This document shows positions 8,500 to 12,478 of a DNA stretch of 64,000 nt, one piece after another. The stretch lies in the NCBI RefSeq assembly GCF_003991155.1, contig NZ_CP031295.1, one strand, 5' to 3'. Within the stretch, counting starts at the first letter, position 1. The number at the start of each line of letters is the position of its first letter. The position numbers were made by a program, and so were the translations under genes. The notes under the pieces were generated by a model. The model had not been told where the DNA came from. It saw nothing but the letters and a program-made list of their open reading frames with translations, and ran no database searches. The stretch is from Escherichia coli. GTDB lineage: Bacteria > Pseudomonadota > Gammaproteobacteria > Enterobacterales > Enterobacteriaceae.

Positions 8500-8860
8500 G
8501 GGCAACGCCGTTTCGCAAACCGCGCTTCACGTCGTTGCGGCGGGTCCCTGCCCGTTGTTCTGTCCGGTGCCATTCACCTGTTTAAGCCCCTGTCGCCGGG
8601 GGCTGATACAGCCACAACCGTCTCCGCCAGTCCAGGGGTGAAATGTACATCCCGCAAAACTTTTTGCCCAAAAGCAGGCAAAAACTTTTGCGGGATGTAC
8701 ATTTCACCCCCGGACAGTCGTTTCCGTCCGTGGCAGTGATGCCCCTTGCGGCGAAGGTTCTCAAAAAGGTGATGGTGAATACCGGAGGGAACAAAAGGCA
8801 GGTCCCCGCAAAACGTCAAAACCGCGGCTCCCGAAACTCAAAAGATGATGGGGGCTGAAA
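8500..8860 (+). promoter_or_regulatory. Frpo/ssi-like leading-region element, copy 1 (single-strand promoter/priming signal)
   Basis: ~360 bp highly structured non-coding DNA directly upstream of ssb, containing a 60-bp perfect palindrome (8643-8702); repeated at 12125-12478; F leading regions carry such ssDNA promoter elements. Confidence 0.55.
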
Positions 8861-8883
8861 ACATCAACAGAAGGAGGCACATC

Positions 8884-9423
8884 ATGGCAGTTCGTGGCAT
8901 TAACAAGGTCATTCTCGTAGGACGCCTGGGAAAAGATCCGGAAGTCCGTTACATCCCCAACGGGGGCGCAGTGGCAAACCTGCAGGTGGCCACATCAGAA
9001 AGCTGGCGTGACAAACAGACGGGGGAGATGCGGGAGCAGACAGAATGGCATCGTGTGGTGCTGTTCGGCAAGCTCGCGGAAGTGGCAGGTGAATATCTGC
9101 GCAAGGGCGCGCAGGTCTACATCGAAGGTCAGCTTCGCACCCGTAGCTGGGAGGATAACGGTATCACCCGTTACGTCACCGAAATTCTTGTTAAGACCAC
9201 GGGCACCATGCAGATGCTGGGACGTGCCGCAGGTGCTCAGACTCAGCCGGAAGAGGGGCAACAGTTCAGCGGTCAGTATCAGCCGGAACCACAGGCGGAG
9301 GCCGGTACGAAAAAAGGAGGCGCAAAAACGAAAGGCCGTGGACGTAAGGCCACGCAGCCGGAGTCGCAGCCGCAACCGCCGGAGAGTGACGATTACGGGT
9401 TTTCAGATGATATCCCGTTCTGA
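8884..9423 (+). CDS. ssb: plasmid single-stranded DNA-binding protein
   Basis: 179 aa from MAVRGINKV; OB-fold N-terminal region, Gly/Gln/Pro-rich linker, acidic C-terminus DDIPF; RBS AGGAGG. Confidence 0.9.
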
Positions 9424-9452
9424 ACGACTGACTGTGACAACCGCCCCGTCCT

Positions 9453-9713
9453 GTGCGGGGCATCACCGGAGATATGAGGATGAGCGAATATTTCAGAATA
9501 CTTCAGGGACTGCCTGACGGTCCTTTTACCCGCAAACATGCCGAAGCCGTTGCCGCACAGTACCGGAACGTCTTTATCGAGGATGACCACGGCGAACAGT
9601 TTCGCCTGGTTGTCCGTAATAACGGTGCAATAGTCTGGCGTACCTGGAATTTTGAGGACGGTGCCGGGTACTGGATGAACCATGTCATCAGGGATTTCGG
9701 GATTCTTAAGTAA
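9453..9713 (+). CDS. hypothetical leading-region protein (86 aa)
   Basis: ORF between ssb and psiB; no motif recognised; position matches small conserved ORFs of F-like leading regions. Confidence 0.5.
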
Positions 9714-9992
9714 GAGAGGTGCCCGACGCGCGAACGTCCGCCGCAGATTATCGCAGCCCTGAATAAGGCAGGGCTGTCCGGTGCCGCACGGGACGCGGAG
9801 AAGATGAAGAAAGGTGATGCGGCTGAACATGCAGAGCACCATATGAAAGACAACCGCTGGGTGCCTGGCTGGATGTGTGCACCACATCCACAGACGGATA
9901 CCACTGAACGCACCGATAACCTGGCTGATGCCGCCTGATAAACAACCACACCGCCCCGCCGGAGACGGGGCGGCAGCAAGGGAGATACCGTG

Positions 9993-10427
9993 ATGAAAAC
10001 TGAACTGACCCTGAATGTATTACAGACCATGAGCGCACAGGAATATGAAGATATCCGGGCAGCCGGAAGTGATGAACGTCGTGAGCTGACACACGCCGTG
10101 ATGCGGGAACTGGATGCGCCGGACAACTGGACGATGAACGGCGAGTACGGCAGCGAGTTTGGCGGATTTTTCCCCGTCCAGGTCCGTTTCACGCCTGCCC
10201 ACGAACGTTTCCACCTGGCGTTATGTTCACCGGGCGATGTCTCTCAGGTCTGGGTGCTGGTTCTGGTGAATGCCGGTGGTGAGCCGTTTGCGGTGGTTCA
10301 GGTACAGCGGCGGTTTGCACCGGAAGCCGTCAGCCATTCACTGGCACTGGCGGCGTCACTGGACGCGCAGGGGTACAGCGTCAGTGACATCATCCATATC
10401 CTGATGGCGGAAGGAGGTCAGGCATGA
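9993..10427 (+). CDS. psiB: PsiB, plasmid SOS inhibition protein (anti-RecA)
   Basis: 144 aa from [13 protein letters not shown]...; matches F/R100 PsiB. Confidence 0.9.
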
Positions 10428-11140
10428 GCGCACGTTCACAGGCACTGGTTCCTCTCAGCACAGAGCAACAGGCCGCATGGCGGGCGGTGGCGGAGACCGA
10501 AAAACGCCGCCATCAGGGTAACACGCTGGCTGAATATCCGTATGCGGGGGCGTTTTTCCGCTGTCTGAACGGAAGCCGCAGGATATCGCTGTCTGACCTG
10601 CGATTTTTCATGCCGTCCCTGACCGCAGAAGAACTGCACGGCAACCGTCTTCAGTGGCTGTATGCCATCGATGTGCTGATTGAAACACAGGGCGAGGTTG
10701 CCTCCTTCCCCTCCGGTGATGCAGCAGAGCGCTTGTTCCCGTCGGTGCGGTTTCGTGTCAGGGAACGCAGTCGCCATAAATCCGCGCTGGTCATGCAGAA
10801 GTACAGCCGCCAGCAGGCGAGGGAGGCAGAGCAGAAAGCCCGTGCGTACCAGGCGCTGGTCGCTCAGGCTGAAATCGAACTGGCATTCCATTCGCCGGAA
10901 ACAGTCGGAAGCTGGCATGCACGCTGGAGTGACCGGGTGGCAGAGCATGACCTGGAAACCCTGTTCTGGCAGTGGGGCGAGCGTTTTCCGTCACTGGCCG
11001 GAATGGAACGCTGGCAGTGGCAGGATATGCCATTCTGGCAGGTCATCGCAGAGGCTGGTATGGCGGCAAGGGTGGTCGGTCATGCTGTTCGTGAGATGGA
11101 GCGGTGGATGGTGCCGAACAAACTCCGGGAGGCAGCGTGA
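10424..11140 (+). CDS. psiA: PsiA, plasmid SOS inhibition protein A
   Basis: 238 aa ORF overlapping the psiB stop; matches F PsiA. Confidence 0.9.
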
Positions 11141-11334
11141 TGCGGCAACAATCACACGGATTTCCCGTGAACGGTCTGAATGAGCGGATTATTTTCAGGG
11201 AAAGTGAGTGTGGTCAGCGTGCAGGTATATGGGCTATGATGTGCCCGGCGCTTGAGGCTTTCTGCCTCATGACGTGAAGGTGGTTTGTTGCCGTGTTGTG
11301 TGGCAGAAAGAAGATAGCCCCGTAGTAAGTTAAT

Positions 11335-11400
11335 TTTCATTAACCACCACGAGGCATCCCTATGTCTAGTCCACATCAGGATAGCCTCTTACCGCGCTTT
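11335..11400 (-). ncRNA. sok: putative Sok/FlmB antisense RNA of the hok/mok module
   Basis: inferred by position: antisense to the mok start/hok leader; exact ends not determined. Confidence 0.35.
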
Positions 11401-11574
11401 GCGCAAGGAGAAGAAGGCCATGAAACTACCACGAAGTTCCCTTGTCTGGTGTGTGTTGATCGTGTGTCTCACACTGTTGATATTCACTTATCTGACACGA
11501 AAATCGCTGTGCGAGATTCGTTACAGAGACGGACACAGGGAGGTGGCGGCTTTCATGGCTTACGAATCCGGTAA
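11362..11574 (+). CDS. mok: Mok (modulation of killing), overlapping reading frame of the hok module
   Basis: 70 aa ORF in a different frame, covering almost all of hok. Confidence 0.7.
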
Positions 11575-11578
11575 GTAG
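11420..11578 (+). CDS. hok: Hok/FlmA family type I toxin (52 aa)
   Basis: [52 protein letters not shown]: single transmembrane helix plus conserved C-terminus of Hok; below the ORF-track size cut-off, found by reading the sequence. Confidence 0.85.
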
Positions 11579-11585
11579 CAACCTG

Positions 11586-11610
11586 GAGGCGGGCGCAGGC
11601 CCGCCTTTTC
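11586..11610 (+). terminator. rho-independent terminator after hok
   Basis: GC hairpin ggcgggcgcaggcccgcc followed by TTTT. Confidence 0.6.
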
Positions 11611-12124
11611 AGGACTGATGCTGGTCTGACTACTGAAGCGCCTTTATAAAGGGGCTGCTGGTTCGCCGGTAGCCCCTTTCTCCTTGCTGATGTTGTACGG
11701 GCATGAACAACCTGACTTCAGGAAGGTCGTTTCCCTTCAGGAACGGGGATGAACGCGCGCCTGCGGCGCCCGTTCTTTTCCCCCGCCTTCTCTGGTTATG
11801 GCCTGTCAGAAATCACATCACCTTCCCTGTGATTATTCTCTTTTTCTTCCTGCTCTGATTCTGACTACTGCAGTGTTGTCCTGTCTGCCGGGCGTACCTT
11901 CGGCTCCCGGCTGCCTGGCGGCATCCGGTCGTCAGGCCCGACTCCGACAGGCAGCTGCTGGCGCACCTGCCAGTCTCCGCCGAACCCGCTGGCGCGGTTT
12001 CGGGCTGTCGCTACGGTCCGATGCGTGAAAACCCCTGGCTTGCAGCGACCGTTCCGGTCGCGCCGCCTCTGTCGCGCCGTGACCTGCGCTCCCGGCATCC
12101 CGGCAAAAGGCGCCGGGATGTAAG

Positions 12125-12478
12125 GCGCAACGCCGTTTCGCAAACCGCGCTTCACGTCGTTGCGGCGGGTCCCTGCCCGTTGTTGTGTCCGGTGCCATTC
12201 ACCAGTTTAAGCCCCTGTCGCCGGGGGCATAGACAGCCACAACCGTCTCCGCCAGTCCAGGGGTGAAATGCACATCCCGCAAAACTTTTTGCCCAGAAGC
12301 AGGCAAAAACTTTTGCGGTCTGCCCCCGGACAGTCGTTTCCGGCCGTGGCAGTGATGCCCCATGCGGCGAAGGTTCTCAAACAGGTGATGGTGAATACCG
12401 GAGGGAACAAAAGGCAGGTCCCCGCAAAACGTCAAAACCGCGGCTCCCGAAACTCAACAGATGATGGGGGCTGAAAAC
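12125..12478 (+). promoter_or_regulatory. Frpo/ssi-like leading-region element, copy 2
   Basis: ~90% identical direct repeat of 8500-8860, directly upstream of the 95-aa ORF; lacks ~20 bp of the distal palindrome arm. Confidence 0.55.

Follow-up and report, generated by a model that had tools for sequence, protein, structure and literature searches.

The window analysed in this study is a stretch of 64,000 nucleotides from Escherichia coli (NCBI RefSeq assembly GCF_003991155.1, contig NZ_CP031295.1). It was found that the window belongs to an F-like IncF plasmid and is collinear with plasmid F (NC_002483). The order sopABC, repeat, ssb, DUF905 gene, psiB, psiA, hok/sok, repeat, ygeA, DUF932 gene, SLT gene, origin of transfer (oriT), traM, and traJ is shared with F. 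The subject here is the two repeats in this order, one upstream of ssb (copy A) and the other upstream of ygeA (copy B), which resemble the single-stranded DNA (ssDNA) promoter Frpo of F. The relevant features are as follows.

8492..8862, minus strand (the transferred strand being the functional one): copy A, very probably the Frpo2-position (ssp1b) class-1 ssDNA promoter element upstream of ssb (direct repeat, 93.3% ssiD/Frpo homology, collinearity with F)
12117..12478, minus strand: copy B, very probably the Frpo1 (ssiD, ssp1a) class-1 ssDNA promoter element upstream of ygeA (95.7% identity to the ssiD of D90178, 97% to F L001 15670-15987)
8884..9423, plus strand: plasmid ssb, first gene after copy A (179 aa; end-to-end alignment to F SSB with few substitutions; SSB annotation in matching plasmids)
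12499..12786, plus strand: gene of a 95-aa YgeA homologue, first gene after copy B (93/95 residues identical to the F protein of L001 16033-16320; F-like gene order)
12793-13725: DUF932 gene, next after the YgeA homologue
14615..14629, minus strand: oriT nic-site motif GGGGTGT/GGTGCTTT (one exact match in the window, between the SLT gene and traM)

When copy A was compared with the 64-kb window by BLAST, copies A and B were found to be direct repeats with 93.5% identity over 371 columns (E = 1e-163). The original prediction, made from the letters and the open reading frames (ORFs) of this stretch, had placed the repeats at 8500-8860 and 12125-12478 with about 90% identity; the pair is real and its boundaries are slightly wider. 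A repeat search divided it into two blocks, 8492-8693 vs 12117-12318 (96%) and 8707-8862 vs 12323-12478 (97%). Since the start-to-start spacing shifts from 3625 to 3616 between the blocks, a single indel of 9 nucleotide residues (nt) lies in one repeat unit. No third full-length copy was found in the window with 8492-8862 as the query, and the only matches besides A and B were self-inverted ones. This weaker inverted match of each copy to itself reveals a quasi-palindrome, or a hairpin.

Both copies lie directly upstream of a leading-region operon, starting with ssb or ygeA. Copy A ends at 8862 and is followed by AGGAGG (8872-8877) and the ssb start codon at 8884, with a gap of 21 nt to the ATG. 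Copy B ends at 12478 and is followed by GAGGAG and the ATG of the 95-aa ORF at 12499, with a gap of 20 nt. These distances agree with the predicted 20-25 bp before the ribosome binding site (RBS) and start codon of ssb (8884) and of the 95-aa ORF (12499).

Which strand of the repeats enters the recipient? The motif GGGGTGT/GGTGCTTT is the nic sequence of F, and its location on the minus strand identifies that strand as the transferred one, which enters 5′ end first with the lower coordinates leading. The prediction that the strand in question enters the recipient as ssDNA from the oriT nick was thus borne out. The transferred strand is the template strand of ssb and of the 95-aa gene. Both repeats are therefore in the leading region with their hairpin strand, described below, being the transferred and template strand.

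The Frpo/ssi sequences listed in Supplementary Table 2 of Samuel et al. 2024, including the ssiD sequence of GenBank D90178, served as references. F ssiD/Frpo (D90178), a characterised class-1 member, is homologous to both copies. It matches the minus strand of copy B at 12470-12121 with 95.7% identity over 352 nt and the minus strand of copy A at 8854-8497 with 93.3% identity over 359 nt. It is very probable that the repeats are the Frpo2-position (A) and Frpo1 (B) class-1 ssDNA promoters (Frpo being ssiD; ssp1b and ssp1a, respectively) of an F-like IncF plasmid. The homology, the position and strand of the repeats, the stability of the hairpins, and the conservation of pairing were all observed in this study. 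The claim that single-strand promoters stand ahead of leading-region genes in this window is supported by the ssiD/Frpo homology, by the same positions as F Frpo1 and Frpo2, and by the stable hairpin of the transferred strand.

A comparison with an F element called "Frpo/ssiE" had also been proposed. The Frpo half of this label held, while the ssiE half did not, since Frpo is ssiD. The ssiE label was rejected for the repeats, as ssiE (D90180) is a separate element. It was found on the minus strand at 13839-14027 with 97.4% identity, between the DUF932 and SLT genes and nearer to oriT than the repeats. F ssiE likewise belongs to the single-strand initiation sequences in the leading region of F, but its sequence and site differ from those of copies A and B.

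Copy B and F Frpo1 (Frpo, ssiD, ssp1a) are both upstream of ygeA, on the same strand and with the same hairpin, and differ only by a few substitutions and a 1-nt indel. Copy A has the position of F Frpo2 (ssp1b), which heads ssb-yfjA-yfjB-psiB-psiA in F, and agrees with Frpo2 in the final ~25 nt and in the RBS of ssb. In its body, however, copy A resembles copy B and F Frpo1 (93%) more than F Frpo2 (83%), and the operon behind copy A lacks most of yfjB, unlike the F Frpo2 operon. Of the ParB-like yfjB of F (L001 11494-13299), only ~200 nt of the 3′ end are retained (~9740-9938), in the interval from the DUF905 gene to psiB (9714-9989). Upstream of Frpo2, F has ~1.7 kb with the klcA/ardB module, whereas copy A is joined directly to a class-2 remnant. 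The IncI1 class-1 elements ssi1-ssi3 of ColIb-P9/pESBL (Bates 1999, Nasim 2004, Wen 2025) are of the same kind, with the same proposed mechanism. Their apical part of ~100 nt is homologous to the repeats (75-78% identity), while their lower stem could not be aligned to the repeats by BLAST, and the downstream genes in IncI1 are ardA, psiB, and ssb. The class-2 (ssp2/"Frpo3") and class-3 ssDNA promoters of F and pESBL are likewise long hairpins of the transferred strand before leading-region operons, but their sequences are unrelated to copies A and B.

These elements are already known, from biochemistry in 1997 and in vivo from 2023 to 2026. Frpo/ssiD is said to have been characterised biochemically by Masai and Arai in 1997. 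A later preprint states that a second Frpo copy was already seen by Masai and Arai. Couturier et al. 2023 named it Frpo2 and gave its identity to Frpo1 as 92% (PMC9849209). In transconjugants, fusions to YgeA, Ssb, or YfjA are no longer made early once Frpo1 or Frpo2 has been deleted from F (Couturier et al. 2023, PMC9849209). Wen et al. 2025 placed these elements among the class-1 ssDNA promoters and reported an enrichment of Frpo1/2-controlled transcripts in RNA-seq (PMC12672017). Fraikin et al. 2026 used the names ssp1a/ssp1b and reported that Frpo transcripts prime conversion in vivo (bioRxiv 10.64898/2026.01.09.698686). According to these studies, F Frpo1/2 and IncI1 ssi are active on ssDNA only, depend on the RNA polymerase holoenzyme, are stimulated by SSB, and give a transient zygotic induction (PMC9849209, PMC12672017, bioRxiv 10.64898/2026.01.09.698686).

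Each strand was folded on its own using ViennaRNA with DNA parameters. The following hairpins were obtained.

8510..8837, minus strand: hairpin A, imperfect stem-loop of 328 nt in ssDNA (-116.7 kcal/mol, compared with -102.7 for the plus strand)
12135..12453, minus strand: hairpin B, imperfect stem-loop of 319 nt in ssDNA (-102.6 kcal/mol, compared with -86.9 for the plus strand)

In a 392-nt context, hairpin A has -120.7 kcal/mol (z = -12.3), and in a 382-nt context, hairpin B has -108.1 kcal/mol (z = -10.6). None of 100 shuffled sequences was as stable in either case. Thus, both copies have an ssDNA stem-loop of ~320 nt that is far more stable than shuffled sequence. The transferred strand is more stable than the plus strand by 8-16 kcal/mol in all four elements compared (copies A and B, F Frpo1 and Frpo2), and contains the larger number of G-T wobbles in three of them. 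The original prediction had called for such a fold of the transferred strand with a -35/-10 geometry. The stable hairpins are there, while the geometry was only partly verified, by three candidates with 8/12 matches.

Is the pairing conserved in evolution? Eleven transferred-strand hairpins were aligned (alignment A2), namely both copies from the window, both from F, three from a Klebsiella IncFII plasmid (L002), one from a Salmonella plasmid, and those from Serratia and an insect metagenome (Samuel et al.). RNAalifold gave a consensus hairpin of 97 pairs for these 11 homologues, which comprise only 10 distinct, related sequences and on which the structure itself was predicted. Paired cells amount to 95.4%, compared with 42-50% in a slid-partner control. 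Compensatory double changes occur at 16 pairs, and the covariation score was reached by none of 500 shuffles. These results point to selection on structure, within a sample of few related sequences. Some G-T wobbles of the transferred strand are invariant (for example, A2 columns 20:330 and 110:243), and these would be C-A mismatches in plus-sense RNA.

The last observation bears on whether the structure acts in the RNA instead. The repeats might form long structured 5′ leaders in the mRNAs of ssb and ygeA and act on stability or translation, with a conventional promoter further upstream. The plus strand also forms a long hairpin (-102.7 and -86.9 kcal/mol for A and B), and a transcription start within the hairpin would put part of it in the mRNA leader. 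However, the minus strand is the more stable one in 4/4 elements, and the invariant wobbles would be lost as pairs in the RNA. Moreover, there is no plus-strand sigma-70-like promoter upstream, and a gathering-threshold scan of the whole window gave no Rfam family at either repeat. The F deletion data fit an ssDNA-specific, transient expression (PMC9849209). A role mainly at the RNA level is thus very unlikely.

How the class-1 ssDNA promoters may work in this plasmid can be outlined by analogy with F and IncI1 plasmids, from which the promoter activity, ssDNA specificity, and priming of copies A and B are presumed. In conjugation, the minus strand would be nicked near 14.6 kb and would pass into the recipient 5′ end first. 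Copy B would enter ~2.1 kb behind nic and copy A ~5.8 kb behind. While single-stranded, each quasi-palindrome of ~320 nt would fold back to a long imperfect hairpin, whose duplex stem may offer sigma-70 promoter elements to the host RNA polymerase. The polymerase would then read the transferred strand, with copy A driving ssb-yfjA-psiB-psiA and copy B driving ygeA-DUF932. These RNAs may also be able to prime complementary-strand synthesis. Once the region is made duplex, the hairpin would be lost and the promoters would become silent.

Priming might be the only function, the repeats being single-strand initiation sites for complementary-strand synthesis with no expression of downstream genes. 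Frpo was first isolated as the priming signal ssiD, and priming by ssp1/Frpo is supported in vivo. Nevertheless, the copies end 20-21 nt before the start codons of operons that are templated on the transferred strand, and the F deletions remove the early expression of those genes (PMC9849209). Since priming and transcription are one RNA synthesis event, priming is a second role rather than an alternative, and priming alone is most improbable.

If the repeats are ssDNA promoters, where are the promoter boxes? A consensus scan of 8100-13000 at 9/12 found no sigma-70-like promoter on either strand, within the repeats or immediately upstream. A relaxed scan gave three 8/12 candidates, all of them on the transferred strand. 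Even then, no plus-strand sigma-70-like site was found upstream of ssb or ygeA, which fits the genes being silent in the duplex form. The candidates are as follows.

8814..8819 (A) and 12430-12435 (B), minus strand: -35-like TTGACG of the candidate TTGACG-17-TTTTGT (5/6 match; near the base of the 5′ arm)
8759..8764 and 8736-8741 (A), minus strand: -35-like TTGAGA and CATCAC of the candidate TTGAGA-17-CATCAC, with TTGAGA at 12375-12380 in B (mid 5′ arm; part of the -10 in an internal loop)
next to the apex on the 3′ arm, minus strand: candidate TGGGCA-17-TACATT (copy A only)

In 11/11 homologues, TTGAC and TTGAGA are unchanged, even where their pairing partners vary. This invariance suggests that they may be recognised in a sequence-specific manner. 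No convincing conserved -10 was found after TTGAC or TTGAGA when the 11 homologues and the ColIb-P9 sequences were compared. A further apical candidate, TTGCGG/TTGTGG followed by TGGAC ~15-17 nt on, is conserved with a poor match, as judged by eye in the alignments. In the acrIIA4 construct of Samuel et al., F Frpo2 is truncated and lacks ~95 nt that pair with the TTGACG/TTGAGA candidates. If this construct is truly an ssDNA promoter, the boxes would be within the apical ~190 nt, which would argue against these two candidates. Read-through from native promoters could also explain the activity of the construct.

Several observations weigh against the assignment of copies A and B to the class-1 ssDNA promoters. 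Even the best box candidates match at no more than 8/12 positions, with -10 hexamers in which either A at position 2 or T at position 6 is absent. Two bases of TTGACG are bulged out in the predicted fold. The plus strand, which is the RNA sense, also folds well, and some of the conserved pairing could serve the transcript. Finally, a change at the apex of copy A removes an internal loop found in the characterised F Frpo1. This variant is located as follows.

~8694..8706, minus strand: rare apex variant of copy A, in which 14 nt of the transferred strand, TGAAATGTACATCC, stand in place of CAGAC of copy B (+9 nt)

It was revealed that the new apex segment is exactly complementary to the opposite arm, so that an asymmetric internal loop has become a continuous duplex. 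The perfected apex is a nearly perfect apical duplex of ~38 bp that adds ~14 kcal/mol to the stability. Coverage of >=80% of the 71-nt segment 8655-8725 was found in only 3 PLSDB records. To judge from its sequence, the change looks like a templated quasi-palindrome correction. There is a small chance that this variant differs functionally, for example in promoter strength or as a stronger block to complementary-strand synthesis. If true, a stronger hairpin block could prolong early expression, by analogy with the class-2 element lost here. The perfected apex is the only mildly unusual feature of the repeats.

The ORFs inside the repeats remain to be considered. ORFs of 46-93 aa (8574-8819, 8643-8858, 12199-12435, and 12268-12474 in the window) exist in all copies, and annotations within the element, as a hypothetical protein or a 40-aa "SSB", are found in many public records. 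That the repeats are protein-coding or a duplicated gene fragment is nevertheless hardly credible, since the minus-strand ORF switches frame midway between copy B and F Frpo1 despite 97% DNA identity, ORF ends and lengths vary among the copies, the starts are TTG, open frames are expected by chance in a quasi-palindrome of 57-59% G+C, and the conservation tracks base pairing. The internal ORFs were thus rejected as genes, and the original prediction had rightly doubted them, as there is no conservation at the protein level. The "hypothetical protein" and mini-"SSB" coding sequences inside the elements should be replaced by a regulatory feature in annotations.

It was found that 8140-8501 is homologous to F sequence that precedes klcA/ardB. 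Of the class-2 hairpin (ssp2/"Frpo3"), a single arm is left there (~8442-8501), and its junction with copy A (8492-8501) lies within the shared GATGCAAGGG. The klcA/ardB operon and the methylase modules of F are absent here. A terminator-like hairpin, GGCGGGGAAAATCCCCGCC followed by TTTTT, lies on the plus strand at 8318-8336, ~170 nt upstream of copy A in the upstream F operon remnant.

In the Klebsiella plasmid, the ssb and ygeA copies are 100% identical (L002 20019-20337 vs 25495-25813), and a third, more diverged copy exists at L002 16721-17037. Copies in the same plasmid are more alike than positional orthologues across plasmids (93% vs 83% for the window). Therefore, the copies appear to have been homogenised, which indicates gene conversion between Frpo copies. 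Could the repeats then be recombination scars or boundaries of leading-region modules without a function of their own? The deletion junction upstream of copy A lies in the short GATGCAAGGG, loss of leading-region modules through recombination between Frpo repeats has been reported (PMC3817090), and the copies within one plasmid are homogenised. However, the pairing shows compensatory changes across genera (E. coli, Klebsiella, Salmonella, Serratia, and the insect metagenome), the position before operon starts is fixed, and the function has been shown experimentally in F by deletion phenotypes (PMC9849209). Recombination is a consequence of the repeats and does not explain them, and the chance that they are scars is close to nil.

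The element is present in at least 5000 PLSDB records, at no fewer than 18,922 places. Samuel et al. 2024 put the number of Frpo homologues at 13,089, distributed over 6,006 conjugative elements. The reduced layout is also common; at least 1752 records cover >=80% of the window segment 7400-13800, and the best matches are 99% identical. Thus, this layout of 6.4 kb is common to well over a thousand sequenced plasmids. The window adds nothing new: its leading region is of the standard IncF type, and the two class-1 promoters share 93-97% identity with the F prototypes. Frpo-type promoters are of current interest in research on how resistance plasmids spread, and explain how genes for SOS inhibition, SSB, and anti-defence are expressed before the second strand is made.

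Some other features of the plasmid were noted. Directly after the sopB-like gene, twelve tandem 43-bp repeats at 7509-8239 constitute the sopC centromere of the F-type partition system. The Rfam scan matched only sok, the traJ 5′ untranslated region/FinP, CopA, AS-traI, and AS-pc02. A sok RNA lies at 11246-11422, and the traJ 5′ untranslated region and FinP lie at 15410-15521. A second hok/sok-type locus lies at 46279-46841 (Rfam sok, AS-pc02). The CopA antisense RNA at 47629-47717 (Rfam) indicates an IncFII replicon elsewhere in the window.

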